From a virus (taxonomy: Duplodnaviria > Caudoviricetes), in the IMG/VR virus record IMGVR_UViG_3300034102_003688, positions 1 through 26,909 of that record: a stretch of 26,909 nucleotides of DNA. The stretch is one strand, 5' to 3'. The notes below the pieces were generated by a model that was not told the DNA's origin, did no database searches, and worked only from the letters and a program-made list of their open reading frames with translations. Below are positions 3,017-26,738 of this stretch, one piece after another (the first letter of the stretch is position 1; every line of letters begins with the position of its first letter). A program made the translations under genes and the position numbers.

Positions 3017-4189
3017 ATGAACTCTCTCGAAACCGACTCAAAGAACAGTGTGACGCCTGAAACCGAGGACGCGGATGGTTTCCAGGTCACGGTTGAGGGC
3101 CTCACATACCGGGTATTCAATCCCCCGGAACGGTCTTGTTACTATCTGAGGTTCAAGCTTAAGGGCAAGGCCTACCTGCGCAGCCTGCGCACCACGGTGC
3201 GGGCCATCGCCACCAGCCGGGCCAAGGTCATCGTGCGCAATATCCTGTCGGGGGATCATCAGGCGGATGCGGCGTCTAAAAGCCGGTCGGAATACGGGAC
3301 GGTGGGGCAACTCCTCGAGATCTACGCCAAACACGGCGGGCCCACACGGACCCCGCGAGAGAACGCGGCGGCGTTGCGGTCGGTGGTGTCGGTCAAGGGC
3401 GGGGATCCAGACAAACAACGGCTCACGGTCCTGACGGGGTCGCTCGTCCGGGAATGGGTCCGGGAGCGCAAGGATCAGATCAGCGCGCACAGCCTGGCGT
3501 CGAACTGGGTGAAGGCGAAGTGTGTGCTGGGGAAGAAATTTTTCCCCCACTATGAGGATGCGGGGCTGAAGATCCCGGATCTGAAGAGTTTCCTCGGGGC
3601 GCAGGTGGAGCAACCCGACCGCCGGTTGCCTCGGGCCTTGGATGAGGGCGTGATTCGCTCGATCATGGCGGCGGCGCCGGAGCTCAAGCGGGAAGATCCC
3701 GCGTGTTACGTGGCGTTCCTCCTGTTCTCCAGGCTGGGCATGCGCAATGTGGAGATCGAAGCGGCCCGGTGGGACTGGATCGAACGCACCGAACGCGGCG
3801 CGGTGATGGCGATCATCGAACGGCCCGAGGAAGATTTCTCTCCCAAGGGCAATGAGGGCCGGGTGCCTATCTCTGCCGATACCCTGGCGGAGCTTGAGGA
3901 GTTCCGGGCGTTGAGCACGGACGGGCACATCGTCCCGGCCCGGCACAAGTCGGAGCGGGCCGAGATCGTGGACCGGCGGCACTCCGCTTGGATCGGTCGC
4001 TGGATCAAGGACCGCTCCAAGACGTCCTATGAACTGCGCCGATACGCGGGAAGCCTCATCCTCAAGCTGACCAACGGGGATATCATGGCGGTTCGGGATT
4101 TCCTCCGGCACGCGGACGTCATGACAACGCAAAAGTGGTATGCGTACCGGCTCCGGGAACTGCCCTCCATCAGCGCGGCGGACCTGTGA
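3017..4189 (+). CDS. int: Tyrosine recombinase / phage integrase
   Basis: Catalytic motifs GMRNVE (R), SPKG (K), YELRR (HxxR variant), LRH...TTQKWY (H, Y); N-terminal arm-binding-like YYLRFKLKGKAYLRSLRT; next to the att-like site. Confidence 0.92.
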   Translation: MNSLETDSKNSVTPETEDADGFQVTVEGLTYRVFNPPERSCYYLRFKLKGKAYLRSLRTTVRAIATSRAKVIVRNILSGDHQADAASKSRSEYGTVGQLLEIYAKHGGPTRTPRENAAALRSVVSVKGGDPDKQRLTVLTGSLVREWVRERKDQISAHSLASNWVKAKCVLGKKFFPHYEDAGLKIPDLKSFLGAQVEQPDRRLPRALDEGVIRSIMAAAPELKREDPACYVAFLLFSRLGMRNVEIEAARWDWIERTERGAVMAIIERPEEDFSPKGNEGRVPISADTLAELEEFRALSTDGHIVPARHKSERAEIVDRRHSAWIGRWIKDRSKTSYELRRYAGSLILKLTNGDIMAVRDFLRHADVMTTQKWYAYRLRELPSISAADL

Positions 4190-4271: not shown

Positions 4272-7200
4272 TTACCGCCTAGGCACGAGCCCTCGGGACC
4301 GACCCAGGAGCACCATAAAGAGCGTGCCATCGTCCGGGCGGGACACGTTGCCTGTGTAGCGGTCCACCTTCACCGGCTGTTGCCCGAGCAACTCGATCTT
4401 CGCGGCGCTCTGAATATCTTCGAGCACCCCTGTAATCACCTTGGCTTTGTATTCATCGGGCAGCGCCGCGAACTGCGGGCTACTCATCAGCCGGATCATC
4501 GATTCACTGGCGAGTTTCCCCGTGTAGTTCTGCATTTGCACGATCTGCTCGTTCGTGAGTGTCAACGGTTGACCGTTGACCTGCACCGTCGGCTGCTGAA
4601 TCGGTGCCACGACAGCCTTTTTCCCGGTGGCATCATAGAGCCGCATCATCTCGGTCGCGGCCGGGTTGCGCTTGGCTTCGGCGATTGTGAACGGGTTAAG
4701 CCACACGTTCAGGAACCCGTTTCCGCCGTAGTTGTAACGCTCCACCGCTTGCCCGAACGCATCGAGCTTGGCGGGGAATTTGTCCCCGAGGAACGGGATC
4801 TTGGCTTGCAGCTTGTTCAATTCCTGGTCCACAAACGAACCTCCACGGGTCTCTGCGACGGTCTCATTCATGGTTTGCTGGGTCTGACGCACCACAGCGG
4901 GCACAAAGTTGCCCGGGATCTGGATCAGCTTCCGCATCACCGCCTCGCCCCCACCGTAAGCCGCCGTGTCACGAATCAACTGGTTGACCCCAGACATCAT
5001 GGGTTGGCGAGTCACGGAGTCGGAAATGGTCTTGGCGTAAGCCAGAACCACGCTTTCTCCCTTGGCTTTTATCCCTGCGATTTTCTCCTCCTTTTTCGCC
5101 CACTCCGCCCCAAACATGACCGACAACGCGGCCGGCTGGAACCAATCGTAAGTGAACATGACATCCCCGTCTTGATACGCTTCGTGGAGCTTCGCCGGGG
5201 TGGTAAAATCTCCCGACAACATGCGGCGTTTAAACTCTGAAAAGTTGAACGAATACCCGCCGATGCCCATGTTTCGGCGCATCGCTTCCACGTCTTTGTC
5301 CTCATCGGGCGCGCCGGAAATAATCCCGAGCTTCAAGAGCATTGCTCCCAGAATGAATGTCCCCGTGCCCACGAAAACCTTTGAAGCGGCCTCCACAAAC
5401 CGGCGTTGCGAAATCATCTTTGCGTCAGGCCCGGCCTTGTCGCTGTGGAGAACATTGTAGAGATCGTGCATCTTTCTCACGGCATTGACCACGCCTAACG
5501 GGGACGCCTCAAGCCCCTGCATCAGGATCGATCCTGGCACTTGAGAGAACGCAATCGTTGCGGTTCCAAATCCGTATTTACGATCCAACTTCAAATTTCC
5601 GTCGGCATCCACCCGCGGGAGATTGAGCAGCTTCTCCAACTTTTTGAAGGTGAAGCTGACCATGTTTTCATTCTGGAAGATGGCGCGTTGCGCGTCCCAG
5701 AGGGCCTGTTCCACCATCGCCTCCGTGGGTGCGATTTGCGGCTGACCGTTGGCCTTCGCCGCCGCCATGCTCCGGGCGATGCTGGCCTGGTAGGCGCTCC
5801 CCCAGAAAGCCAAGTCGGCGGGGCCCAGTCCAATCGCCAGCCCGTCCTCCAGCATCCGGCCGAACCGGGAGGAAAACGTGTGCCGGAACTGCTGGGTGAG
5901 TTGCTTTGGATCGGTCACCTGGGAACTGAGCATCCGGCTGGTATCGATCACCGTGCGGAGCGCCTCGGACAACCGTTGTCGCACGGGCAACCCTTGGTCT
6001 GCGGCCCATTGCCACCCGGCTTTGCCTACCCGGATGGGTTCCCCGAGTCCGCGAATCCTGGCAAGCAACTGCGGGGAGGTGGTGGAGCGGCGGCCCGTAA
6101 AGATTCTTGTCGCCGGGTCCACGATCACTGCGCCCACGGCATCGGCCGTGGAGTTGAGCAGGAACATCCCGAGGTTGCCGATCGGGTTGCGCAGGAACGT
6201 CTTGCCCGAGAACAACATCGCGATGTTCTGGATCGCCCGGACTTTGCTCGCCAACTCACTCGGCACCAGCTCGTGCACGGCTTCGAGCATCTGCGCGCCC
6301 TTGACCATCTTCATCGTGCCCTCGGGCGCGGACTCGTAATCTTTCTGGAGCTTGGCGACTTTGTCCGCCGCTTCCTTCGTGAACACCGGCACGCCCAGCG
6401 CCTTGGCGATCTGCGCGTGCAGGGTCTCATCGGTGAGCTTGCCCTCGTTGTTGAGGAGCATCAGCTTCTCCAGCACGCTCTTGGGCACCCGTTCCTTGCG
6501 GGCTTTGACCCCGGCCAACATCTTCTTGATGAGGCTCTCGCGCACTTTCTTGGCCTTGGCGGTGAACTGCCGGATCGCCTGTTCGGCCAGCTTGGTGGCC
6601 TGCTTGTTCTCCATCCCGAAGTTGACCAGCATGCCCACGATCTTGTTCCGGGCGGTCCCGGGGTTCTCCGGGCTGAGCACCAGCGCGTCGCGAAGTTTGG
6701 TGTTCAGTTCGGTGAGCCGTTCCGGGGTGAGCTTGAGGGATCGGAGGTAGTCTTGAATTTCCAGCACCGTCTCCGCGCCGAGCTTGCGCTTGACCTTGGC
6801 CAGCTCGGCCTGGAGCGCGGCGATGTTCTCGTAAGCGGCCTTGAGTTCCGGGCCCATGTCGGCAGCGCCTTTTGCCGTCAGCTTCTCCGCGTATCGGCGG
6901 ATGCCCTCCGGGCTGGTCTTGGCGATGGTGGAGATATACCACAGCATACGGCCGGGGGACGTCAGGCTTTCCGCCATCTTGATCCGCACCTGGGTGGCTT
7001 CGGCGTGGCGGTCCATGGCTTGGAGCCGGAGCGCGACGTGATGCCCCAACGCGAGCGTGTCCACGTCGTCCTTTTTGCTGTCCATGAACTGATCCCTGGC
7101 CTCGTCCACACCGACGGTGTCGATCGTCTTGTTGGCCTTGGCGTTGACTTCCGGGGCGGTGGTTGCCCGGTAGAAACTCTCCACGTTGTCGGAGACGGAT

Positions 7201-10160
7201 GGCGTCACATCCAGCATGCGGCGCACCGTCTCCACATGGCCCCGGCGTTTCTCCGGGGACGCGGCGGCGGCTTCGGCCTGCTCCTGGGTGGGCACCTTTG
7301 AAAACCGGATCGGCTCGGCGGTGCCGGCAGGCTGCGAACGTTGGGCGACCCGGCGGCGGGCGGCGTTGAGCAACGCGACAATGTCGCCGTCCGTCATGCG
7401 GAGCTTGGGGAACACCTCGCGCAGGAGCTCGCGGATCTTGGCAATGGCGCGGGCGACTACCCCTTGTCGCGGGGTGTCTTGCTCGGTTTGGCGTGCGAGA
7501 TATTCGGTGACCACGTCGGCACGGCCTTGCGGGGTGGCAAGGTTGGCTTGGTAGTCGCGGGCGATCTGGGAAAGCTCGGCTTTGGGGATCCGGGTGTAAA
7601 CGCCATCCACGATCGAGTTGAAAACGCGGCGGCTTTTGGCGGCGAGCACGGCCCCGAGTCCGGCGTGGCCCACGGTTTCGTGAAGCGCCACCTGTTGGGC
7701 CCGGGTTTCAAACGGGATGCCAAACTGGGCGGCACCCTGGGCGATGCCGGACGCCACGAGATGCACGCGGCCACCGAGGAAGAAGCCTTCCACGGCGCGA
7801 CCGGCGGCGGCTTCGGCGCGGACCAGGTCGCCGCCCACCCCGGCGGGAATGGCGTCGGGGCTGGCGTGCCAGACGGTCGAGGGGTTCATGCCCGCCCGGG
7901 AAAAGAGGGTTTTGACTGCGGCCTTGGCTTGGGTGAGCACGCCGGGCGGGAGCGCCGGGGTGTCGGCCGTGCCGGTCTGTTTGGAGAAGGGCATCCCGGC
8001 CATGGATTCCTCGGCGCCGATGTTGGTGAGGGCTGCTCGGGGTTCTTTGTTGGTCCGCATCCACTGATCCACTAGGCGGAACACGTCGTCGGCCCCGGCC
8101 ACGTCGAAGCCTTCTTCGCGCAGGCCCTCGGCGACAGTGTCCATGGAACGGGCTTCGTCGTCGAAGAGGTTCTCGAAGAGGCGTTTGTTGCCGAAGCGTT
8201 TGCGTGCGCCTTGGCGTTCCTCGATGAGCATGGCGAGTTCGCCGGACCATTCGCCGAAGTGGCGGCTTTTCTTGGAGGGGAGACCGCCGATGCGGCGCAG
8301 GGCGTCGGCGAGGCCGACGGTGTGCTCTTCGTTGACGGCGTCGAGCTCGGCTTGGAGCTCGGCACGGTAGGCGGCCTCGGCCAGCTCGGCTTGGGTGGGT
8401 TTGCGCGGTGGGGGCGGGGGTGCGGGTTGCGGCGCGGGTGCCGGGGCGCTGGAAAGATCGGTCGGATCGGTCGGATCTGACCGATCGGTCGGATCTTGAT
8501 CAACCGCCGCCACCGGGGGGGGCGTTGCCACCGGAGCGGGCGTTGCCACCGGGGCGGGCGTTGCCACCGGGGCGGGCGTTGCCACCGGGGCGGGCGTTGC
8601 CACCGGAGCGGGCGTTGCCACCGGAGCAGGCGCCGCCACCGGGGCGGCCTGCGCTGCGGGCGCCGCCTGCGCTGCGGGTGCCGCGGCAAAGAGCGCGGCT
8701 TCCTCGGGCGTGAGCTCCGTGGCACCCACCGAAAGCGAAGCGAGGTTTGCGGTCGCGGGCGCGGCGGCTTGGTCGCCTGGCTGCGGCGTGGCAAACCGTT
8801 GCGCCACCCTGCCCACACCGGCGGCCCCGCCCGTCATCATCAAACCGCCGAGAAACTCCAGGGCCCCGGCCTTCGCGATCTGCGCCGGGTCGAGCTGCTC
8901 CCGGTTGATCACCTGCGAAGCCGTCTCCTGCAACGAACCCGTCACCCCTTCGCCAGCCGAGCCTTGCACGATCGCCCGGCCCACCCCTTGCGCGGCCTTT
9001 CCAGCGGCGAGCTTCTTCATCGCACCCGCCACAATCCCGCCGCCGATCGGCTCCAGGCCACCGGACACAATCCCGTTGAGCAACCCTCTCCGGATCGCCT
9101 CCTCCTCATCCACACCTTTGGCTCGGTTCTTCTCGTAAGTGTCTTGGTAAGTCTGCGCGAACATCTGCGCAGTCCCGAGCGCGGGGCCCACCCCGGGCAC
9201 AAGGAACGGCGCGACCGACTGCACCGCGCTCCCGGCCACTTGCGGCACCGTCTCCGCGAAAAACTCCCCTGCATAAGCCGGGTTGGGCGTGAACCGATCC
9301 TCCGCATCGGCCACCACCGCACGGCCTGCGGACCGGATCGCATCCGGCACCTGGAGAATGTCTTTGGAAGAACCGAGCGTGGCCAGCCGTTGCTCCAGTT
9401 CAGCGAGCCGGGCGTCTTTCTGGGGAAAGTCCGGCGCGGCCTTCGCCTTGGCGATGATCTGGCGCAAACTGCGCTCCTCCGCCGCCGCCTCCTGCGGCGT
9501 GCCCGTGCCTTGCACAGCCGACACCACCTGAGCGCCCAGCGTCCCGAGCCCTTCCACCGCCTTGCCCAGCCCGGCCTCGGCCGTCTGCGCGAAAGTCGAG
9601 AGGCCCGATCGGATCCGGCCCGTGCCCGTGTCCCCGTCGAGTTTCTGAGCGGGCGCCGGGTCGAGCAACTCAAAGTCCAAATTTCCTGAGCCGTTGCTCA
9701 TCTGCGCGATCGCGGAATCCAGCGCCGCCATGCGGGCATTCGCCTCTGGGCGGTTCTGCCCGGCCACATACACATCGATCACCGGCTCCTTCCCGCCGGA
9801 CGCCTTGCGGCTCTTCACCGCGCCGCCCGTGTCATGGGCGATGAACACCCCGTCCTTGTTCGCGCTCATCTCGGCCAGCGCCGGGATCTTCACCCGGCTC
9901 CCGTAGGGAATGACCTTGGGATCGACCGCGATCGTCACGCCTTCCTGCGACTGCCGCTTGCCGGTGAGCGGGTTCTTCCGGGCGGACTCCGAGCCGTATT
10001 GATCTTCGTGGTTGTTGTAAACCGTCACCCGTGCCTGGCCACCGCCGAACGTCGTCGGTTGGCTGGGATCAAACGGCGGCTTGTCCGATGTAGGCAGGCT
10101 TGGATCGAACGGCGGTTTCTCGTCAAACGGCCGACTCGGATCGTAGGGAGGCTTTGACAT
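4272..10160 (-). CDS. Large internal virion / DNA-ejection polyvalent protein with N-terminal 3D (MltA-like) lytic domain and HExxxH motif
   Basis: 1962 aa; 3D motifs TIAVDPKVIPYGS, AHDTGGAVK, IDVYV; HETVGH...EYLA zincin-like motif; Gly/Ala-rich helical regions; last gene of the virion module. Confidence 0.8.
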   Translation of the reverse strand: MSKPPYDPSRPFDEKPPFDPSLPTSDKPPFDPSQPTTFGGGQARVTVYNNHEDQYGSESARKNPLTGKRQSQEGVTIAVDPKVIPYGSRVKIPALAEMSANKDGVFIAHDTGGAVKSRKASGGKEPVIDVYVAGQNRPEANARMAALDSAIAQMSNGSGNLDFELLDPAPAQKLDGDTGTGRIRSGLSTFAQTAEAGLGKAVEGLGTLGAQVVSAVQGTGTPQEAAAEERSLRQIIAKAKAAPDFPQKDARLAELEQRLATLGSSKDILQVPDAIRSAGRAVVADAEDRFTPNPAYAGEFFAETVPQVAGSAVQSVAPFLVPGVGPALGTAQMFAQTYQDTYEKNRAKGVDEEEAIRRGLLNGIVSGGLEPIGGGIVAGAMKKLAAGKAAQGVGRAIVQGSAGEGVTGSLQETASQVINREQLDPAQIAKAGALEFLGGLMMTGGAAGVGRVAQRFATPQPGDQAAAPATANLASLSVGATELTPEEAALFAAAPAAQAAPAAQAAPVAAPAPVATPAPVATPAPVATPAPVATPAPVATPAPVATPPPVAAVDQDPTDRSDPTDPTDLSSAPAPAPQPAPPPPPRKPTQAELAEAAYRAELQAELDAVNEEHTVGLADALRRIGGLPSKKSRHFGEWSGELAMLIEERQGARKRFGNKRLFENLFDDEARSMDTVAEGLREEGFDVAGADDVFRLVDQWMRTNKEPRAALTNIGAEESMAGMPFSKQTGTADTPALPPGVLTQAKAAVKTLFSRAGMNPSTVWHASPDAIPAGVGGDLVRAEAAAGRAVEGFFLGGRVHLVASGIAQGAAQFGIPFETRAQQVALHETVGHAGLGAVLAAKSRRVFNSIVDGVYTRIPKAELSQIARDYQANLATPQGRADVVTEYLARQTEQDTPRQGVVARAIAKIRELLREVFPKLRMTDGDIVALLNAARRRVAQRSQPAGTAEPIRFSKVPTQEQAEAAAASPEKRRGHVETVRRMLDVTPSVSDNVESFYRATTAPEVNAKANKTIDTVGVDEARDQFMDSKKDDVDTLALGHHVALRLQAMDRHAEATQVRIKMAESLTSPGRMLWYISTIAKTSPEGIRRYAEKLTAKGAADMGPELKAAYENIAALQAELAKVKRKLGAETVLEIQDYLRSLKLTPERLTELNTKLRDALVLSPENPGTARNKIVGMLVNFGMENKQATKLAEQAIRQFTAKAKKVRESLIKKMLAGVKARKERVPKSVLEKLMLLNNEGKLTDETLHAQIAKALGVPVFTKEAADKVAKLQKDYESAPEGTMKMVKGAQMLEAVHELVPSELASKVRAIQNIAMLFSGKTFLRNPIGNLGMFLLNSTADAVGAVIVDPATRIFTGRRSTTSPQLLARIRGLGEPIRVGKAGWQWAADQGLPVRQRLSEALRTVIDTSRMLSSQVTDPKQLTQQFRHTFSSRFGRMLEDGLAIGLGPADLAFWGSAYQASIARSMAAAKANGQPQIAPTEAMVEQALWDAQRAIFQNENMVSFTFKKLEKLLNLPRVDADGNLKLDRKYGFGTATIAFSQVPGSILMQGLEASPLGVVNAVRKMHDLYNVLHSDKAGPDAKMISQRRFVEAASKVFVGTGTFILGAMLLKLGIISGAPDEDKDVEAMRRNMGIGGYSFNFSEFKRRMLSGDFTTPAKLHEAYQDGDVMFTYDWFQPAALSVMFGAEWAKKEEKIAGIKAKGESVVLAYAKTISDSVTRQPMMSGVNQLIRDTAAYGGGEAVMRKLIQIPGNFVPAVVRQTQQTMNETVAETRGGSFVDQELNKLQAKIPFLGDKFPAKLDAFGQAVERYNYGGNGFLNVWLNPFTIAEAKRNPAATEMMRLYDATGKKAVVAPIQQPTVQVNGQPLTLTNEQIVQMQNYTGKLASESMIRLMSSPQFAALPDEYKAKVITGVLEDIQSAAKIELLGQQPVKVDRYTGNVSRPDDGTLFMVLLGRSRGLVPRR
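8454..8501. repeat. GATCGGTCG-type repeat with internal palindrome (encodes DQDPTDRSDPTDPTDL)
   Basis: AAGATCGGTCGGATCGGTCGGATCTGACCGATCGGTCGGATCTTGATC; contains GATCGGTC-N6-GACCGATC. Confidence 0.85.
8503..8682. repeat. 18-bp tandem repeat encoding (APVATP)x6 plus degenerate and AAPAAQ copies
   Basis: GGCGTTGCCACCGG[A/G]GCG units in tandem, in frame within the large ORF. Confidence 0.9.
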
Positions 10161-10937: not shown

Positions 10938-11336
10938 TTATCGGTGAGAAAGTTTTCGGGCCGCGTCGGCATCGGTCTCCAGCCCCACAGTGAGCTCTTC
11001 CCCGGCCGCAATCGGGCGGGCGGCCACGAGCACACTTTCCCGGTCGTGCCGGGGCGGCGCGTCCTCGATCGCGTTGGGGTCGGCGGCGAAATTCCAGAAC
11101 CGTGCGTCATCCCCGCACAGCACCAGGGCGCCGGGCCGGGCCGGGTTCACATAGCAGTAATGCCGGATCCGCCGTTGCACATGGAGCGGGAACCGGCCGA
11201 CGTCCTCGAACTCAAACCGCGTATCGATCCCCCGGGTGAACTCCCAGAGCGGTTCCCCCCGGGCAATGTCGCGGGCGGCAAAGAGCCCGATCCCGTGAAT
11301 CGTGGAGGCCGCGATGAACGTGGGCACTAAGAGCAT
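10938..11336 (-). CDS. SET-domain protein with degenerate catalytic motifs
   Basis: STIHGIGLFAARDIARGE, DDARFWNFAADPN (canonical RFxNHSxxPN) and AARPIAAGEELTVGL (canonical EELTxDY); GGAGG precedes ATG 11336; alternative GTG start at 11363. Confidence 0.85.
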   Translation of the reverse strand: MLLVPTFIAASTIHGIGLFAARDIARGEPLWEFTRGIDTRFEFEDVGRFPLHVQRRIRHYCYVNPARPGALVLCGDDARFWNFAADPNAIEDAPPRHDRESVLVAARPIAAGEELTVGLETDADAARKLSHR

Positions 11337-12190
11337 GTGGCCTCCCCGAAATTCGAGGAGCACGTCGGCGCCTCCTCCCCGAAATACGATGCCCGGAGTT
11401 CAATATGCGCCACCGTCCCGGACACATTGCGCACCTGCCGGTTCAGCTTCGGGCAATGGACCGTCGGCCCGTTGCGCCGGTCGATACACGCCATGCAGGC
11501 CGTCCAATAATCCGAGTTGGCCGTCTTGTCCGGCAACTCATCCCAGCCGAGATCATCCAGATAATACCGATCCGTCTGCACCGGCACGGCAAACCGGTCC
11601 GTGTAGTCCCAGATGTCATCGTCCGTCCAGTGCCGGAGCGGGAACGCCCCGGTCGGCCCGTGGTCCACCCGGACAAGGTCCGTGTGCAACGGCACCCGCC
11701 CCGCGATCTGATCTTGGTCGCTGGACTTGTGCCCGATGAACGCCATGTCCCAAGGATATTGGAACGTGCCCGTCGGCCGGTGCATGAGATCCGCCAACCC
11801 GCACAGGTAAGGTTTCCCCTCCACGGGCGGCAAAATGTTCTTCGGCACCGAGCATGTCACCGGTTCACCCGTGGGCTTCTGGCCGATCTGGTAATGGTTC
11901 GTGAACGCCACGATGCCTTTCCCGTGCCAGAGGCTCACCGCCACCGGCTGCCAATCCCAAACGGTGAGGTTCCATTCCCGGATCATCCGATCCGCGAACG
12001 CGTATTTGTGGGGAAACCACGGGTCGCGATGGAACACAACGGGCAGGTCCAGCCCCATCGAGCGCAGGAGATGGAGCAGCACCATCGAGTCCTTGCCAAA
12101 CGAGCAGAGCAAAACGGGGGCGGTGGACTGTTCCAACGCCTCGCGGATCTGCGCCCGGCTGGCCTCAATCAAATCGTCGAGTCGCGGCAT
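11327..12190 (-). CDS. PAPS reductase-family (PP-loop adenine nucleotide alpha hydrolase) protein
   Basis: PVLLCSFGKDSMVLLHL PP-loop; FIGHK; FPLRHWTDDDIWDY; C-terminal CMAC...CPK cysteines. Confidence 0.85.
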   Translation of the reverse strand: MPRLDDLIEASRAQIREALEQSTAPVLLCSFGKDSMVLLHLLRSMGLDLPVVFHRDPWFPHKYAFADRMIREWNLTVWDWQPVAVSLWHGKGIVAFTNHYQIGQKPTGEPVTCSVPKNILPPVEGKPYLCGLADLMHRPTGTFQYPWDMAFIGHKSSDQDQIAGRVPLHTDLVRVDHGPTGAFPLRHWTDDDIWDYTDRFAVPVQTDRYYLDDLGWDELPDKTANSDYWTACMACIDRRNGPTVHCPKLNRQVRNVSGTVAHIELRASYFGEEAPTCSSNFGEATCS

Positions 12191-13750: not shown

Positions 13751-14919
13751 GTGTTGAAGACTAAGAGGTCATGGACCACCGTTCCGATGTTGTACGAAGA
13801 AGTGCCTGCGTTGAGGTAGTAGACGGTCACCGTGTCAGCCGTGAAGCAATCCGCGGCGATTTGAATGTTCGGCCGATTTGCGCTCTGTGGAACGATAATT
13901 GTCGCCCCGGGCAACGCCCCGGTAACAGTGGATGCCACGTTATAAAGGACGCCCGGGTTCAGCAGCCCCCCGTTAGGCGTCTGCGTGACGGTCGACTTGA
14001 GCACGCTTTTTAACGGAACACCCGACGCGCCGATCTTCAGCGGCACGTTGACCTGGAGCGGAGAAGTGTCGCTGCGCATCGCGCAGTTCCAAACAGGGCG
14101 CGCAGCACCGGCTGCTGTAGTAGAATAAAACCAAAACTGACCGTCCGCTTGAGCTTGTAGGTAAGGCGTCGTTCCTGATTGATCCGTGAACAGAATAGCG
14201 TTGGTGTTATTCAACAGCCGCACATCCCCAGCCACGGTGAGCTTGTGCGTGGTGGAGGGCGTCCCGATTCCCACGTTATTCCCGCCTGCTGATCCTGTAA
14301 GGAAAAGCATTGGCGCGTTGACGTTGCTTCCGTTTGTTGCGCCCAGCGCCACGCCGTAATTCAGCCCCGCCGGGTTGAACTCGATAAACCCTTGGGGCGT
14401 TGCGTCGGTGAACTGCTGCAAGCGCGTGGTGGTGGTTTCCCAGTTTGTCCCCGTGGAGTTCCGCACCTGTAAAAGGCGGAGCGTCGAGTTGTTCCCGTTG
14501 CTCCACTCTGCGCGGAAAATCTCAGCGGTGGAAAAGGCTGGAGAAGCGACCACACCGCCGCCGACGTGAAGCTTGGCCTGCGGCAAGCCCGTTCCGATCC
14601 CGCAATTGTTGTTAACGTCCCACGCGATGAGGTTGGTCCCGACGGTCTCCGCGTCGTTGAGCCGCGAAAACTCGACCTTGCCGCCAAGCTCGACATAGCC
14701 GCGCACTATCTTTTTATCGGTCGGCGCGCCCGTGTTGGTGAGCTGCAAATACGGGTAAACGCCGTCCGTGATCCGCAGCGAACTGAAATTCGTATCCGAC
14801 GCCACCACGCTCCCCGGCGAAAGCGCCACCGTGGGCTGCCCCAGTTGGTTGAGCTGCGCCTTGCTGATAGGCCCGGAGACGCTCGAAAGATTGATGCCTG
14901 GTGTGACTGTGAGAATCAT
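13747..14919 (-). CDS. Tail fibre protein
   Basis: Repeated NxGIGTxxPxxKLxVxG fibre motifs (NNCGIGTGLPQAKLHVGG, NNVGIGTPSTTHKLTVAG); Thr/Asn/Gly-rich; follows the tail tube gene. Confidence 0.8.
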   Translation of the reverse strand: MILTVTPGINLSSVSGPISKAQLNQLGQPTVALSPGSVVASDTNFSSLRITDGVYPYLQLTNTGAPTDKKIVRGYVELGGKVEFSRLNDAETVGTNLIAWDVNNNCGIGTGLPQAKLHVGGGVVASPAFSTAEIFRAEWSNGNNSTLRLLQVRNSTGTNWETTTTRLQQFTDATPQGFIEFNPAGLNYGVALGATNGSNVNAPMLFLTGSAGGNNVGIGTPSTTHKLTVAGDVRLLNNTNAILFTDQSGTTPYLQAQADGQFWFYSTTAAGAARPVWNCAMRSDTSPLQVNVPLKIGASGVPLKSVLKSTVTQTPNGGLLNPGVLYNVASTVTGALPGATIIVPQSANRPNIQIAADCFTADTVTVYYLNAGTSSYNIGTVVHDLLVFNT

Positions 14920-16634
14920 GCGAGTGGTTTCAGGGTGCGCTGCGGGTTGGTGGCCTCCACCGTGGTGGCCGTCACCGCGCAGACGCCTTGCGTGTTGCTG
15001 ATCCGCATCGACACGGACCGCGCCGTGGCCGACACCGCCCGTTTCTCAAGGAGCGTTTGCCGGGCGTCGAAATCCACCCCGGGCGGGTCGAGCAGAATCG
15101 GCACGGCCAGATCCACGGAGTAATCCTCCCGGCGCGGCGTGGCGTGATCGAGCGCGGCGTTGCTCGGGTTCCAGTCGGGCACCCCGTGCGTGTAGTAGCG
15201 GGTCCGGCTTTTGGTGATGGCCGGGCCCGTGCTCGTCGTCTCGTTGTAACCGTCCGTGAGCAGATCCACCGTCACACTCGGCGCCCATGTCTCCAGGTTG
15301 AAACTGATCCGGCGCAACACCTTCGGCTGATGATCCTTGAACGTGTAACCCCGGGTCTCGATCTGGTCCGCCACGGGATACTCCACCCCGTTCCATTGAT
15401 CCGTCACCCCGTCGTAAAGCAGGAACGCCCCGGACTGCGCATTGTCCGACCCCCCGGCCGGTCCGTGATACATCCCGTAAAGCCGTTTCTCCCCGCCCCA
15501 ATCCGAGATCAGCAGGTTATCGAAGAACAACCCGGCGTCCGTGGCCGACTGCGGCACGGGCCCTTTGTGGATGCCCTGCCAGGCGTCCGTCACGGTGTCG
15601 TACACTAGGAGCGCATTGGGCCGGGTCGCCGTGTCGAGCGGCACCGCAAGGTAGTAGTAGCGCCCCAACACCGCCCCCGTGCACAGGCCCCGGGCGTTCT
15701 CGTTGATCCGCCGGATCAACGGGGTGATGGGGTCGGACACCGGAGTGGCCCCCGTTTGCAACCGGCCCTGGATGATCTGTTGCACCCGATACACCCCGTC
15801 CGACGCCAGAAAGAAAACGTCCCCGCCCACCATCGCCACCGAACGCCGGGCCGCGCACCCGATCTCCGCGTTGATCTGGTCCAGCCGCACCTCGGAGAGG
15901 TCGCCGTAAATGTTGGAAATGAGATGCGTGCTCTGGTCCTTGAACACCAAGAGCGAATTGTTCGTGAACGGGAACACGCGCACAATCGCGTCGTCGCTCC
16001 CGGAGTTCACGTTGAAATCATTGAGCGCCGCGTCGTAAGCCGTGTAGTCGAGCAGGTCGGAAACGGCGATTTGGTCCCGGCTGTAGGGGATGAAAAGCCG
16101 GTTCGCCATGAGCTCCGCCGTCGTCGCGCCCGGGATCGGGCTGAGCCCGGCGCCCGGGTCCACCTGAGATGCCTGCACAAACGTCGTGTTGATGTCGCCA
16201 TCCCACACCCAAGGCACCTTGCCCGGACCCCGGAACAGGAGCACCTGGTTGAACGCCTGCACCACCTCGATGGGGTCGGCGGTCGAGAGTCCCGTGTAAG
16301 CGATGCTGAACCCCGAGCTGTTTTCCCGGGTGAAATACGCCCGGTCGCTGGCCGCGTGAACGATGTATTCCACGCCGTCCGGGTCGGAGTAAACCCCCGA
16401 GCCGCGAATGAACGTGTTGGCCGGGAGCGCCGCCGTTTCGATCCGGTGACTCACCGGCATCCGGAACCCGGGCCGTGTGTCGGCTGCGCCCGTGGCGAAC
16501 ACCTTGTTTGTCGCCCCCGCGCACCAGCCCGGTTCCAGCAATTCCCTGCGGAGCTTTGTGTTCACGCCGAGGAACACAGAATCGCCGTCCACGCGGCTCT
16601 CGGCATCGTTCTGTGTGGCTCGTTCGTAACGCAC
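14916..16634 (-). CDS. Tail tubular / nozzle (head stabilization) protein, P22 gp10 / T7 gp12-like
   Basis: About 572 aa from GTG 16634; beta-propeller-like motifs (NRLFI, LLVFKDQS, IGCAARRSV...DVFFLASDGVY, PVSDPI, YYLAVP..LLVYD); position downstream of portal. Confidence 0.75.
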   Translation of the reverse strand: MRYERATQNDAESRVDGDSVFLGVNTKLRRELLEPGWCAGATNKVFATGAADTRPGFRMPVSHRIETAALPANTFIRGSGVYSDPDGVEYIVHAASDRAYFTRENSSGFSIAYTGLSTADPIEVVQAFNQVLLFRGPGKVPWVWDGDINTTFVQASQVDPGAGLSPIPGATTAELMANRLFIPYSRDQIAVSDLLDYTAYDAALNDFNVNSGSDDAIVRVFPFTNNSLLVFKDQSTHLISNIYGDLSEVRLDQINAEIGCAARRSVAMVGGDVFFLASDGVYRVQQIIQGRLQTGATPVSDPITPLIRRINENARGLCTGAVLGRYYYLAVPLDTATRPNALLVYDTVTDAWQGIHKGPVPQSATDAGLFFDNLLISDWGGEKRLYGMYHGPAGGSDNAQSGAFLLYDGVTDQWNGVEYPVADQIETRGYTFKDHQPKVLRRISFNLETWAPSVTVDLLTDGYNETTSTGPAITKSRTRYYTHGVPDWNPSNAALDHATPRREDYSVDLAVPILLDPPGVDFDARQTLLEKRAVSATARSVSMRISNTQGVCAVTATTVEATNPQRTLKPLA

Positions 16635-16715: not shown

Positions 16716-18833
16716 TCAGGCGGTCGGCTCCATGAGCGGCTCCGCCCCGGTGCGTCCCGTGTTGGCGTTGGTCTGCTGCTGGATCATGAACTGGAGATGT
16801 TTCACCCGGTTCTCGAACAGCGCCTTGCGATCCGCCCGCATTTCCAGGCTCTGCGCGGCTTCCGGGTTCTGCTGGACGATGCCCAAGAGGGTCTGCAACC
16901 GGAGCTGATAGTTCTGGCCCGAGGCCCGCATGGGCGGTTCCACGCCGCTGGTGATGAGCGCGAAGTTCTTCTGCTCGTCCTCGGTCTCGTTGGCGGCCAC
17001 CGCCTGGGGATCGCCCACGAGCTGCTGCGCAAGCAGCGGATCGAACGAACCCATCGCCCAGTTGACCGCCCCGGCCCGGTCCACCTGCCCGGTTTGATCC
17101 ATGCCCATGACCCCCTGGAGAAACTCCAGCTTTTGCTTGAGCAATTCCCGGTCGAGGTTGGCCACGTCGAACGCGATCCGGATATCGAACTGCCCTTGGA
17201 TCTCGTCCCGGCTCACGGTGAACGGCACCCGTTGCCCGCCCGTGATGCGTTCCACGGTGGTTTCCGGCAGATACTGCTGGGCAAGCTGCACGGTCTGGGT
17301 CGCCATCTCCTGCACCTCGCTCAGGAACTTGTTCACCAAGCGGGTTTGCAAAAGCTGCGAGAGCACCGGGTTCACCGTCTGGGTGTTCCGTCCGAAATAC
17401 CGGTCGAGCCGTTCCTGGCTGCTGCGTTCCACCTCCACCGACGCCCCGAGGTTGCCCGGCGGAGGGGCCATCCAGCGCAGTTCCCCCGAGCGGCGTTCGG
17501 TGTGTTGCACCCCGGGCCCGAACTCCAGCCGGGTTTTGCCCCGGTTGGGAGGGACGATCACGGGCGGGATGGTGGCGATGCTGGTGTAGTCCGTCCGCGC
17601 ATCGCTCTGGGCTTTGATGCTGTCCTGGAGGGATTTCCCCAGCTCCGGCACGCTCCGGCTTTCGCTCATGGAGCGGCCCACGTATTCGCGCACCCCGGCC
17701 ACGAACGGGAACCGGCCGTGTTTGTAGGGGAGCAACTCATGTTTGGCCGCCAGCTTGGGCACATGCGGCGAGATGACCGTGCAATAAATCGCGGGCACAC
17801 CCGTGTCGGTGTCCGTGCCCCGGCGGTAAACGTGAAAGATTTGGATGAGATCCTCCACATCCTCAAGGAACGGGCTGGTGGACCCCCGGCGGGCCCGGGT
17901 CCAGTCGGTGGCGGTCTGGAGGATGTTGCCCTCCCAATCTTTGCCCTTGGTTTTGAGCGCGGCGTCGATGAACTCCTCGTCGTAATCGTCCGTGGTGGCG
18001 CGGTCGGCCAGTTCGGTGGCGGTCACCCATTCGATCTTCGCGATCCAGCGGGCCGCCTGCATGCTCTTGGTGGCCACGGGAAAGAACACGTCCACAAACG
18101 GGCGGAGCGCCTCCCAGCACGGGAGCGAGGAAAGCATTGTCTCGCGGGGCACCAGGCTGCGGCCGGTCTCGCGCAGTTCGTTGAGGATCACCCGGGCCTG
18201 TTTCTTCGAGATGCTCTCGGAATATCCCCGGATGAACGCCAGCATTTCCTCCTCGGCCAGCGGGTCTTGGAGTTTCTCCACGAGCAGGGCGAGGCTGGTG
18301 AGTTTCTCGGGATCTTCCTGGGCGTCCGCATAGGTCTTCTCCAGGTCGATCTCCTCGTTCTCCAGTTGGCGGCGTTGCTCCCACCACACGCCCATCACGG
18401 CCATGCCGTATTGCTGGCGGTAATTGGCATAGAGCTCCAGCTCGCGTTCCAGGTCGCTCCGGAGATGGACCTTGAACAGCCATGTGAGGATATGGTTCAC
18501 GAGCTGGGACGCGCCCATGCTATCGCCCCGGCTGGAAGTGACCTGCACCATGGAACGCGAGAACGCCTCCAGCATGAGGGCGACCTGTTCGTTAATCACC
18601 TCGTCCACGGCGCGCACCCTCTGATCGCTCGCGCCGTTCCACGGCATGGGGTCCACCCCGAGGCGATCCTTCCATTTCCTCCCATCGTCGCTCTGCCCGG
18701 ACCATAGGCACATCCGGGTCCGCCAGTCGGCCTCCTGCTGATTGGTCAACCCGCTGGAGTTGGTGAGGCAATCCTGGAGTTCCTTCAAAATGTCGGACAC
18801 TGCGGGATCGGCGGAGGTCAGGAAATCGTTCAT
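16716..18833 (-). CDS. Portal (head-tail connector) protein, podovirus type
   Basis: About 705 aa from ATG 18833 (MNDFLTS); PMPWNGASD, YGMAVMGVWW, LLPYKHGRFPFV and IQGQFDIRI motifs typical of P22-like portals. Confidence 0.8.
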   Translation of the reverse strand: MNDFLTSADPAVSDILKELQDCLTNSSGLTNQQEADWRTRMCLWSGQSDDGRKWKDRLGVDPMPWNGASDQRVRAVDEVINEQVALMLEAFSRSMVQVTSSRGDSMGASQLVNHILTWLFKVHLRSDLERELELYANYRQQYGMAVMGVWWEQRRQLENEEIDLEKTYADAQEDPEKLTSLALLVEKLQDPLAEEEMLAFIRGYSESISKKQARVILNELRETGRSLVPRETMLSSLPCWEALRPFVDVFFPVATKSMQAARWIAKIEWVTATELADRATTDDYDEEFIDAALKTKGKDWEGNILQTATDWTRARRGSTSPFLEDVEDLIQIFHVYRRGTDTDTGVPAIYCTVISPHVPKLAAKHELLPYKHGRFPFVAGVREYVGRSMSESRSVPELGKSLQDSIKAQSDARTDYTSIATIPPVIVPPNRGKTRLEFGPGVQHTERRSGELRWMAPPPGNLGASVEVERSSQERLDRYFGRNTQTVNPVLSQLLQTRLVNKFLSEVQEMATQTVQLAQQYLPETTVERITGGQRVPFTVSRDEIQGQFDIRIAFDVANLDRELLKQKLEFLQGVMGMDQTGQVDRAGAVNWAMGSFDPLLAQQLVGDPQAVAANETEDEQKNFALITSGVEPPMRASGQNYQLRLQTLLGIVQQNPEAAQSLEMRADRKALFENRVKHLQFMIQQQTNANTGRTGAEPLMEPTA

Positions 18834-24527: not shown

Positions 24528-25529
24528 TTAGGAAGCGGCGATTTTACCGTGGGCAAGAGGGCTGGTGACGCAGAGGGACACGATGGCGTCGATGACGCCG
24601 CGAGGGCCGCCGCCAGCGTCGGGCAAGGGCCGGAAGTAAGGCGCGGTGTGGGTGCGCAGCTCGATGAACTCCATGTCCACCAGGGCCGCGTGTTTCATGT
24701 TGGGCGTGCCGCCCCCCGTGGTGGCGCCGACGAACAGGTCGGGGATGATTTCAACCACCCCGTAGTCGCCTTCGTAGAGGTCGATCGCCGTCACAAAGGC
24801 GCGGTCCTTGAGCTCGCCGTTGAATTGGCGGATCACGGTGTTGCTCGCCTTGTTCGGCGCATACCGACCGAAGTCGGTGATGGCGTTTTTGACCTGGGTG
24901 CCCGCGAACAACACGAGTTCCTTGGCAACGCCGGTCTTCTCGTAACGGCTCTGGAGAATGGCGCGGAAATCGTCCTCGTCGAAGTCCGTCATTGCGCCGC
25001 TGTAGATGCTCGCCGCCGGGGTGCGATAAGCCTCGTCGGTGATGGGCAGATCGGTCTGCACGGCGGACTGCACCCATTTCTGGAAGCCGCGCTGTTTGCT
25101 GCCGTCCTGCCCGTTGTCCTCGGCGGACTCCTGGTTGGAGAGCATCGCAATCTCCATGTTGCGCTTGATCTCGTACATGCTCTTGCGCTTGGCTCGGGCA
25201 AACTCGCGCTCGGGAACTCCCGCGACGGTCTGCACGTTCTCGGCGATGAAGCCCACCATGGGCGCTTCACGGTACACCTCGCACCGGGCGCTGAGACGGG
25301 CCCGGCGTTCGGCGGCGTTGGAGAAGGTGTCGACGTCTTTGCCGTCGGGCACCCCGCCCGCCTTCGGGTCCGCGTAGCGGTCCACCTGGAAGGAGTAGAT
25401 GATGTTGGTCGGAGTGTCGCCTTTCGGCAGCTTCGACATGAAAGGCATTTGCTTGGCATCGGCCACGGCGAGGATGTCGGAGAGATCCTCGCGTGCGCCG
25501 ACTTGGGCGACTTGGTTGGTGTAAGGCAT
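24528..25529 (-). CDS. Major capsid protein (SU10/DUF5309-like HK97 fold)
   Basis: 333 aa; GAREDLSDIL, PFMS, EIKRNMEIAMLSN, IDLYEGDYGVVEIIP, C-terminal PLAHGKI. Confidence 0.88.
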   Translation of the reverse strand: MPYTNQVAQVGAREDLSDILAVADAKQMPFMSKLPKGDTPTNIIYSFQVDRYADPKAGGVPDGKDVDTFSNAAERRARLSARCEVYREAPMVGFIAENVQTVAGVPEREFARAKRKSMYEIKRNMEIAMLSNQESAEDNGQDGSKQRGFQKWVQSAVQTDLPITDEAYRTPAASIYSGAMTDFDEDDFRAILQSRYEKTGVAKELVLFAGTQVKNAITDFGRYAPNKASNTVIRQFNGELKDRAFVTAIDLYEGDYGVVEIIPDLFVGATTGGGTPNMKHAALVDMEFIELRTHTAPYFRPLPDAGGGPRGVIDAIVSLCVTSPLAHGKIAAS

Positions 25530-25544
25530 AGAAACAGGGTCTGG

Positions 25545-26633
25545 TTATGCCCGGCTCGCTGTGGCCATGAAGAACCGCTCGATCGCGTCGGCGCTGCCGC
25601 CGCTCTGGAACACTTCTTCAAGGGCCTTGGTCCTCACCAGTTTGTCGGTGGCGACTTTGGGCACGGGCGTTTTGGTGACCGGCGCAGCAGGTGCGCGCTC
25701 GGGTTGTTTGATGGGTGTGGGCTTGGGCGTTTCGCCGCGCTGCATCCGGGCCCGGTGACCTTCGAGCCATTCGCCCACGAACACCTCGGGATCGGCGAAG
25801 CGCCGAATCTCGGGCAACGCCTGGAGCACTTGCTGGAAGAGCCGGTGTTCGTCGCTCTTCGTGTCGAAGAGCGCCGGATACTCCGTGCGCGCCAGCTCGA
25901 TTTGTTCGGTGCGTTGCCGGAGAAACTCCGCTCGCGCCGGGGCGTGTTCGCTGAGCACCTCGTCGCACCGCGAGAAATGGCTGCGGATCTCCGCCGCCGT
26001 GGCTACTCGGGTGCCGCCGTTGCCGTCGGGCACTTCCACGGGATCGCCCGTTTCCGGGTCGACACCGTCCCAGTGCGTGATGGCCCAGGCGCGGATGCGT
26101 TTGGCTCGGGCGATTTCTTCCTGGAGTTGCGCGGCGTTCTCGACGTGGGCCAGCGGGGTTTCCGCAGACGTCGGCACGGGCGCCTCGGCAGGAGAGGCCG
26201 GGGTGGTTTGGGTGAGCTTGGCTTCCAGCTCGGCGATGCGGGCCTCGCGTTCCGCCACCGCATCGGACACCGCTTTCGCGGAGGTCTCCTCGGCAGTCTT
26301 AGCGCGGGCCGTGAGTTTGTTGATCCGCTTGAGCATCTTGGCGATGGCGCGCGGATCGTTCTCGGCGATTTCGTCTTCCTCCTCGGGCTGGGCCTTCTGT
26401 TCTGGCTCGGCTTCCGGGGTTTGGTCCTGAAGATCGGTCGGATCGGGCTGCTCCGTCGGATCGGTCGGATCTTGAAGATCAGTCGGATCGGTCGGATCGG
26501 TCGGATCGGTCGGATCGGTCGGATCGGTCGGATCGGTCGGATCAGTCGGATCAGTCGGATTTGCTGCGGTGGTTTGCTGGCCGAGAAACTCGCGTTCCTG
26601 CGGGTCGAGCAAAGCGATGAGATCGTTGGTCAT
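25545..26633 (-). CDS. Capsid scaffolding protein
   Basis: Acidic disordered N-terminus, KRINKLTARAK coiled-coil motif, Pro-rich C-terminus; directly upstream of the major capsid gene. Confidence 0.78.
   Translation of the reverse strand: MTNDLIALLDPQEREFLGQQTTAANPTDPTDPTDPTDPTDPTDPTDPTDPTDLQDPTDPTEQPDPTDLQDQTPEAEPEQKAQPEEEDEIAENDPRAIAKMLKRINKLTARAKTAEETSAKAVSDAVAEREARIAELEAKLTQTTPASPAEAPVPTSAETPLAHVENAAQLQEEIARAKRIRAWAITHWDGVDPETGDPVEVPDGNGGTRVATAAEIRSHFSRCDEVLSEHAPARAEFLRQRTEQIELARTEYPALFDTKSDEHRLFQQVLQALPEIRRFADPEVFVGEWLEGHRARMQRGETPKPTPIKQPERAPAAPVTKTPVPKVATDKLVRTKALEEVFQSGGSADAIERFFMATASRA
26430..26560. repeat. 9-bp tandem repeat GATC(G/A)GTCG encoding (PTD)n
   Basis: Nine contiguous units at 26477-26557 plus partial copies at 26432-26470. 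Confidence 0.92.
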
Positions 26634-26738
26634 GGAGAAACCCTCCAAGGGGTTGAGTGGGTCAACGCGCTTGGGGCGACCCGGCCGTGAAGGCGGGAAG
26701 CAATGGGAAGTGCGCGCAGAAACTTCGGCATGAGGGGA

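Follow-up and report, generated by a model that had tools for sequence, protein, structure and literature searches.

A PP-loop enzyme and an altered SET-fold protein among the ejection genes of a temperate short-tailed phage: candidate modifiers of an ejection-protein C-terminus

Gene content around the PP-loop and SET genes

The window, that is, the whole stretch of DNA that was analysed (26.9 kb; 26,909 nucleotides), comes from a viral record that is about 68% complete. By gene content it belongs to a temperate short-tailed phage, with an integrase, an SU10-type capsid protein, a portal-like protein and a tail nozzle/head-closure protein (Table 1). A PP-loop gene and a SET gene, both on the minus strand, are located between the tail genes and the gene of a 1962-residue protein with a 3D domain; their open reading frames share 10 nt. 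Two nucleotides separate the pair from the upstream gene and six from the downstream one, both of which are predicted, from synteny and composition, to encode ejection proteins. The first-pass annotation had described two overlapping, tightly packed genes with these gaps, an SFGKDS loop and a CxxC...C cluster; all of this was confirmed, while a further cysteine, C130, had been missed. It had also stated that the window holds no sulfur-assimilation or dnd partner, which is the case for the 22 window open reading frames scanned.

When the homologues of the upstream gene were compared with PHROG, 1/33 found a match, to a family of unknown function, and no functional name was gained. The 154-residue product encoded just upstream of the predicted small ejection protein had no family match, and in many relatives small conserved genes, with no GNAT match, fill the slot before that protein. 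Three of these genes (L016:4035-4373, L020:7924-8310 and L046:6943-7341), also with no family match, occupy the position of T7 gp13/IVP-A; the ejection proteins behind them often begin with Met-Gly, and that of the window with Met-Ser. Low-complexity repeats were observed at 8408-8600 (VATPAP units, in the large protein) and at 26430-26570 (DPT units, also in a gene, 25545-26636).

Table 1. Features of the window, and partner genes in related loci (positions refer to the window unless a locus is given).
Feature	Position	Strand	Remark
Integrase	3017-4189		
Predicted large ejection protein, 1962 aa, N-terminal 3D domain	4272..10160	-	Pfam 3D E 1.7e-8; synteny
Predicted second ejection protein, 255 aa	10164..10931	-	Family match in identical copy L367
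Altered SET-fold protein, 132 aa	10938..11336	-	
PP-loop (adenine-nucleotide alpha-hydrolase) enzyme, phage-specific CysD/FAD-synthetase-like family, 287 aa	11327..12190	-	
Predicted small ejection/internal virion protein, 362 aa	12193..13281	-	Putative substrate
Tail nozzle/head-closure protein	14916..16634	-	phrog_578 head closure E 2.8e-9; enzyme-independent anchor for controls
Portal-like protein	16716-18830		
SU10-type capsid protein	24528-25529		
CxxCxxCC proteins before or after the enzyme	L016:6184-6369, L065:4913-5194, L273:700-1011, L276:7669-7971		
YcaO-(ThiS)-TfuA in the PP-loop slot	L166:6676-8864, L176:5730-7897, L186:5415-7874, L319-L366		

Sequence, fold and distribution of the two proteins

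The two genes are real and intact, and purifying selection acts on both, with dN/dS of about 0.09: against the relative L001, dN and dS were 0.0097 and 0.105 for the PP-loop gene and 0.0075 and 0.080 for the SET gene, all from small counts. The PP-loop comparison with L369 was out of frame and was left out.

The PP-loop enzyme matches the Pfam family PAPS_reduct (E 1e-10). Its SFGKDS loop occupies residues 30-35, and C232xxC235...C246 is present together with C130. Across 49 aligned enzymes S30, G32, K33, D34, S35, C130, K155, D158, R208, Y209, D227, C232, C235, C246 and P247 are invariant. The S-x-G-K-D-S motif is found in 132/132 complete members, which were chosen by that motif, and is invariant as well in 45 rows that were not selected in this way. 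The full CxxC...CP pattern is missing in 6/132 complete members; judging from the sequence, the cysteine set may possibly hold zinc or an iron-sulfur cluster. Since inteins are expected at essential active sites, the intein inserted within the PP-loop of one relative (P0280) points to the loop as such a site.

The AlphaFold model of the enzyme (mean pLDDT 93.8) is closest to CysD (Z 15.8, rmsd 2.5 over 159 residues), followed by FAD synthase (Z 14.9) and APS reductase (14.3), with lower matches to NcsA (10.3), TilS, LarE (9.6) and Cap9 (7.5), and it has an inserted beta-hairpin region at residues 84-120. Profile scores reached neither the cut-off for PAPS/APS reductase (CysH; 19-33 bits against 154-254) nor that for the ATP sulfurylase CysD (36-44 bits against 195-413), and the matches to both models cover the N-terminal PP-loop only. 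The motif ECG(L/I)H, which is the C-terminal catalytic motif of CysH-type PAPS/APS reductases, or a CC pair was found in 0/132 complete members. Since the scores lie far under the cut-offs, the match is N-terminal only and the reductase motif is absent from these members, the enzyme is, as judged by sequence and model, an adenylating-type PP-loop protein of the PF01507 branch and neither a PAPS reductase nor an ATP sulfurylase. No CysN or CysC gene was seen among the scanned window open reading frames and neighbour families. The window enzyme matched neither DndC nor the PADLOC models; 21/49 relatives matched the DndC model weakly (best E 7e-6). Among 72 neighbour families scanned there was no dnd, ParB or DNA-methylase partner, save one weak, sub-cut-off match to MT-A70.

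The fold and the PP-loop are shared with CysD, FAD synthetase and APS-PAPS reductase, with LarE, which thiolates a carboxylate, with NcsA/TtuA and YcfA, and with Cap9, which modifies a protein terminus. Unlike these known families, the window enzyme lies under all cut-offs, has its own cysteine set and the inserted hairpin, and is found almost only in phages. One search returned 269 homologues, and another 222 clusters at E up to 1e-30; about 5,600 viral stretches fit the family patterns, of which only a fraction are confirmed relatives, and the family is thus common among viral sequences. The nearest ESM Atlas clusters are 80-100% viral. A scan of genome contigs gave two true members (L080 and L081), the other 77 loci being distant and mostly CysD-like, and tblastn of the window enzyme in cultured phages returned 12 records at 24-27% identity, with distant proteins of Bacillus phages and one of an archaeal virus. 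An apparent second PP-loop gene in L022, L034, L054 and L081 was discarded as a clustering artefact from a fused reading frame in L021. In P0352, P0369 and P0379 the enzyme carries an extra C-terminal domain of about 130 residues, GNAT-like by eye and with no Pfam match; it is fused to a TPR and GT9-like part in P0338 and to an S74-like part in P0284.

The SET gene matches Pfam SET (E 2e-9), and its AlphaFold model (mean pLDDT 95.1) matches SET domains (vSET E 2.7e-7). An alternative GTG start at 11363 would give 141 residues, while homologues align from the ATG at 11336 (132 residues). Two similar purine-rich stretches lie at 11336-11380, each with GGAGG before one of the possible SET starts (GTG 11363, ATG 11336); the repeat lengthens the C-terminus of the enzyme and is kept in P0002.

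With SET lysine methyltransferases (vSET, MLL, small bacterial SETs) the protein shares the fold, the HGxG motif, the motif-III Asn (N82) and GEEL, and E114 is retained as well. It differs from them in that F83 replaces His (NF instead of NH), the Tyr of ELxF/YDY is gone after GEELT, and D122 and K128 are newly invariant. NF was found in 25/25 aligned SET members, with no DY after GEEL. SET signatures are given as NHS/CxxPN and ELxF/YDY in the available text of PMC3178901. Because the signature His and Tyr are lost, ordinary lysine methylation by the window protein is doubtful on sequence grounds; of the lysine-methylating SET domain proposed at first pass, the fold was confirmed and the activity gained no support. 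A SET-anchored scan gave 41 viral loci, 26 of NF type and 15 of NH type. All NF-type proteins lie beside the PP-loop enzyme (25 loci) or at a contig end (one), whereas 0/15 of the NH type lie beside it. Among the 120 closest SET proteins listed, 99 are NH, 9 NF and 12 unparsed or other, and bacterial look-alikes keep NH and DY/NY. A different SET-like gene, with GEEITL(H/N)YG and the Tyr kept, was seen between the nozzle and ejection genes of L322, L324, L332, L340, L348, L358 and others, and occurs upstream in several YcaO-type phages.

SET genes are present in 20/120 unique PP-loop loci, a set that was enriched by the SET-anchored scan, before the enzyme in 11 and after it in 9, and SET-enzyme fusions occur in P0068, P0263 and P0281. 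SET is thus an optional, clade-restricted partner and not a fixed half of a module. The upstream protein ends in Phe in 19/20 unique SET loci versus 8/87 unique loci with no SET; this association was dropped as independent evidence, since SET forms one clade with a single change on a quick enzyme tree. In place of SET, a small CxxCxxCC protein (PF03692) occurs in at least 35 unique loci and never alongside SET; the count is a lower bound, the profile having missed divergent members in L273, L276 and L277.

The tip of the upstream protein and its exchange

The small ejection protein of the window has an uncharged, Gly/Ala-rich tip ending in L-I-V-F, two bases before the start of the enzyme, and in relatives the upstream stop often overlaps the enzyme start. 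Loci were collected by enzyme-anchored scans (7/64 and 6/64 parts, best 80 kept) and by nozzle- and SET-anchored scans. They comprised 143 readable PP-loop loci, with some contigs found twice, and four more with the motif cut off. Five of the 143 were left out, two with no upstream open reading frame and three (L241, L244, L276) with a wrong one. In 137/138 of the remaining loci (119/120 unique) the last ten residues of the upstream protein contain no D, E, K, R, H, N or Q, versus an uncharged tip in 3/18 relatives with a free end and no enzyme. The last residue is Ile in 75 of the 138, Phe in 43, Leu in 9, Ala and Val in 4 each, and Thr, Tyr and Ser in one each. This blunt tip was seen in at least two upstream families and in several unclassified proteins. 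The enzyme has a constant gene neighbourhood.

The nozzle gene was chosen as control anchor, the alignment of the upstream protein having no conserved stretches suitable for scanning; its profile was built from enzyme-bearing phages, and the control thus covers their relatives and not all podophages. Of 80 nozzle-anchored loci, 43 were usable (complete upstream gene and enough downstream DNA), the 37 truncated ones being left out. These 43 carry the PP-loop enzyme in 8 cases, YcaO-TfuA in 7 and neither in 28. By a hydropathy rule, the tip is blunt in 7/8 PP-loop loci, the eighth ending in GVSF, versus 0/35 of those with no PP-loop gene. The 28 enzyme-less loci have a Cys-starting CWVAR domain (9), an S74 domain (1) or a free tail (18) that is usually charged or Gly-ending. 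Among 78 PP-loop loci there were five misses, all with GVSF or GASF ends that fall below the hydropathy threshold only.

On a nozzle tree (FastTree, 93 dereplicated rows) there are 20 changes in the PP-loop state. The blunt tip follows the enzyme 15.8 times on average among 17 independent pairs and never shows the opposite (sign test p ~3e-5). Part of this co-variation is linkage, since tip and enzyme are adjacent and are exchanged together in one cassette; this is the chief caveat, and linkage alone may account for the pattern. Only the persistence of the tip over enzymes of 29-57% identity and unrelated upstream families argues for selection.

Near-identical phages swap a block of tip, PP-loop gene and partner for one of tip and CWVAR domain, with or without YcaO-ThiS-TfuA. 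The exchanged block begins 17-40 codons ahead of the upstream stop, and its far border lies at or within the following ejection gene, as seen in the sister pairs L178/L177, L017/L319, L245/L340 and L191/L344 (84-96% DNA identity around the locus); in L002/L224 the larger part of the ejection gene is exchanged. The CWVAR Cys aligns with the stop-codon column in L178/L177 and falls within about two residues of it in the YcaO pairs, the other pairs being less exact. A free, hydrophobic C-terminus is the constant neighbour of the enzyme, which replaces tail domains that start at the same position: a CWVAR or S74 domain was found in 0/78 PP-loop loci versus 64/82 others. The cassette is best read as an optional, exchangeable maturation unit for the ejection-protein C-terminus. 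The modification step would be dispensable or host-dependent, since 18 relatives lack both the enzyme and a tail domain.

The alternative allele matches YcaO (E 6e-64), TfuA (1e-30) and, in some phages, ThiS (3e-8). A YcaO-anchored scan gave 50 loci, 48 of them new; in 48/48 of the new loci the CWVAR-bearing upstream gene precedes YcaO, and the PP-loop enzyme is present in 0/48. TfuA comes after YcaO in every contig that reaches far enough, and some of these loci have ThiS in between. In YcaO-type loci the preceding ejection gene always encodes a CWVAR tail, with an Ala run ahead of the Cys. The phage YcaO had no match in cultured phages. Since YcaO is paired with the CWVAR domain in 54/54 cases and forms one tight clade (67-100% identity), it need not share the job of the PP-loop enzyme. 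Both systems would be ATP-dependent protein modifiers and occupy the same slot in sister phages, but YcaO-TfuA has an unrelated fold and is found with a CWVAR tail instead of a free blunt end. As far as the accessible portions of the reports go, YcaO-TfuA thioamidates McrA (PMC5589413), the YcaO-TfuA(-ThiS) system introduces backbone thioamides in McrA and uL16 (PMC5589413, PMC13063428) and ThiS and TfuA supply the sulfide (PMC13063428). This known thioamidation places protein-modifying chemistry in the other allele of the slot.

The CWVAR domain forms the C-terminal ~70 residues of the upstream gene product in L164, L170, L179, L224 and others. Against the CFI-box-CTERM model NF041770 (threshold >40 bits) the best of four tested sequences, the only one to match, reached 15.3 bits (E 0.012), a resemblance only, and no Pfam name was attached to the domain in the ESM Atlas. 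Its structural neighbours there include a Nif11-family cluster and a polysaccharide-export cluster, each with a similar part, and hint at a general processing or sorting domain.

The same arrangement is already annotated in Bcep22-like phages, with a function that is only assumed to be sulfur metabolism, although the first-pass annotation knew of no characterised system of this kind. In the Lessievirus JC1 (OM283127) the order is gp61 head closure, gp63 N-acetyltransferase, gp64, gp65 'PAPS reductase' and the further virion genes gp67/68/69. It corresponds to that of the window, where the 154-residue gene with no family match stands in the slot of gp63. In both, the enzyme lies between the nozzle and large ejection genes and behind a blunt-ended small protein, a virion protein in JC1 and a predicted one in the window. 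The tip of gp64 is uncharged and has a terminal Phe, like that of the window protein. JC1 gp65 is homologous to the window enzyme (HH probability 97.3, 24% identity) but represents a separate subfamily which tblastn of the window enzyme does not reach; its cysteines are arranged as CC...CxxC and not as C...CxxC...C and, unlike in the window, no SET partner is annotated. Relatives of gp65 were found in 43 cultured-phage records. In the accessible text of the JC1 paper, gp64 is a virion protein by mass spectrometry, and gp63 and gp65 are outside the virion list (PMC9144972); by analogy, this is weak evidence for a non-virion enzyme. As worded in the available parts of the JC1 (PMC9144972) and CSP3 (PMC10269572) papers, genes of the gp65 type are assumed to be sulfate-reducing or sulfur morons. 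In a literature search that mostly covered papers available with no subscription, none assigned the enzyme to virion-protein modification or reported a phage YcaO-TfuA.

In the ejection operon of T7, gp13/IVP-A is described, in the part of the source available, as a non-structural assembly factor with an acetyltransferase fold beside the small ejection protein (PMC4819975), and is by analogy a precedent for a non-structural enzyme fold at such a site. The T7 protein has a GNAT fold and lies upstream of gp14-like genes, whereas the PP-loop enzyme lies downstream and tracks the C-terminus.

Proposed function and alternatives

With confidence somewhat above even, the PP-loop protein is proposed to be a maturation enzyme, itself not part of the virion, which activates the free C-terminus of the predicted ejection protein with ATP, the SET protein likely acting in a second step on the same tip. 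The part of this proposal held most firmly, as probable, is that the tip of the upstream protein would be the substrate; the first-pass suggestion of a module modifying ejection proteins is thereby supported and narrowed to one C-terminal tip. In the PP-loop superfamily the substrate is adenylated and then attacked by a nucleophile, which would also be the simplest chemistry for the window enzyme on the terminal carboxylate. An acyl-adenylate on the terminal carboxylate, which has a little less than an even chance, would explain why nothing may follow the last Ile, Phe or Leu. Counting against protein adenylation by analogy, CysD and FAD synthetase, which have the closest folds of known structure, act on small molecules in their adenylation reactions.

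What would resolve the adenylate is more speculative. Sulfur, giving a thiocarboxylate for S-methylation by SET at tips with a terminal Phe, is a tentative choice and overall rather unlikely; it is favoured over other nucleophiles by the YcaO-TfuA-ThiS allele, the cysteine set and a SET protein deprived of its residues for lysine use, and a thioacid would readily accept a methyl group. PP-loop enzymes form thioamides via adenylation, according to the accessible part of one report (PMC12494993). Transfer of sulfur from a cluster is weakened by the six complete members with an incomplete CxxC...CP pattern, and no sulfur-donor gene was seen in the PP-loop cassettes examined. Ammonia, a lipid amine or a protein amine could act in place of sulfur, giving an amide, a lipidated tip or a protein cross-link. 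Such a cap would make the end uncharged or give it an activated acyl group, and so would ease insertion of the tip into the outer membrane of the host, or its coupling to a partner, while DNA is ejected. The outer membrane is where small ejection proteins are thought to insert, as stated in the available text of PMC8954989. If true, a covalent tip cap would be a new step in the conversion of a soluble packaged ejection protein into a membrane channel.

The first alternative, a rather improbable one, is that the enzyme binds ATP as a chaperone or loading factor, which holds the greasy tip until head packing and leaves no lasting mark. The enzyme never accompanies the CWVAR or S74 domains, which may act so in cis, S74 being by its Pfam name a known intramolecular chaperone domain, and the non-structural T7 assembly factor with an enzyme fold (PMC4819975, as far as its accessible text goes) is a parallel. 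Full conservation of the PP-loop, together with the intein site, speaks against a purely holding role, and so do partners of methyltransferase fold or with Cys clusters and an exchange allele of covalent chemistry.

Slightly less likely is a DNA- or small-molecule-modifying enzyme of the DndC/IbrA type, for instance in anti-restriction, with the tip match reflecting linkage within a mobile cassette. Tip and enzyme are indeed swapped together, the nearest folds act on nucleotides and the weak DndC matches of the relatives fit; but the window enzyme itself has no DndC or PADLOC match, the neighbour families scanned supplied no DNA-related partner beyond the MT-A70 hit, and the same tip recurs across upstream families that are unrelated to one another and in JC1, whose enzyme is 24% identical, where drift under mere linkage would have eroded it.

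It is very unlikely that both proteins are packaged and injected as counter-defence effectors, with SET methylating host lysines. This idea, also raised at first pass, draws on their position within the ejection operon and on the passenger enzymes that ejection proteins can carry (PMC4819975, available text), but gp65 is outside the JC1 virion list in the accessible text while its neighbour gp64 is inside, the signature His and Tyr of SET are lost and the tip co-variation would be left unexplained. Least probable is an auxiliary metabolic PAPS/APS reductase or ATP sulfurylase feeding host sulfur assimilation, which has the Pfam and PHROG names and the assumption made for homologues (PMC9144972, PMC10269572, accessible text) in its favour and, against it, 19-44 bits versus cut-offs of 154-413 over the N-terminal PP-loop only, ECG(L/I)H in 0/132 members and no CysN/CysC among scanned neighbours.

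Returning to C-terminal activation by the PP-loop enzyme, a broader formulation, against which the odds clearly stand, would join all alleles as a polymorphic activation system on the first ejection protein of short-tailed phages. The carbonyl of a membrane-seeking tip would be joined to sulfur, either by a self-processing CWVAR Cys domain or as a PP-loop thiocarboxylate; a repurposed SET protein would S-methylate the thiocarboxylate, and the YcaO-TfuA-ThiS allele would thioamidate the same tip. Host selection would drive the trade of cassettes among near-identical phages, and one class of 'cysH' auxiliary metabolic genes in phages would in fact encode enzymes that modify virion proteins. If C-terminal modification is true, phage 'PAPS reductase' genes described as sulfur-metabolism morons would be reread, and a SET fold would have a non-lysine acceptor.

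As to hosts, one of the two family members in genome contigs (L081) sits in an archaeal MAG yet matches the viral contig L034 gene for gene, and its binning is doubtful. The other (L080, a Chthoniobacter MAG contig), together with P0106 (Chthoniobacterales), is a weak indication that Verrucomicrobiota are hosts of some of these phages.
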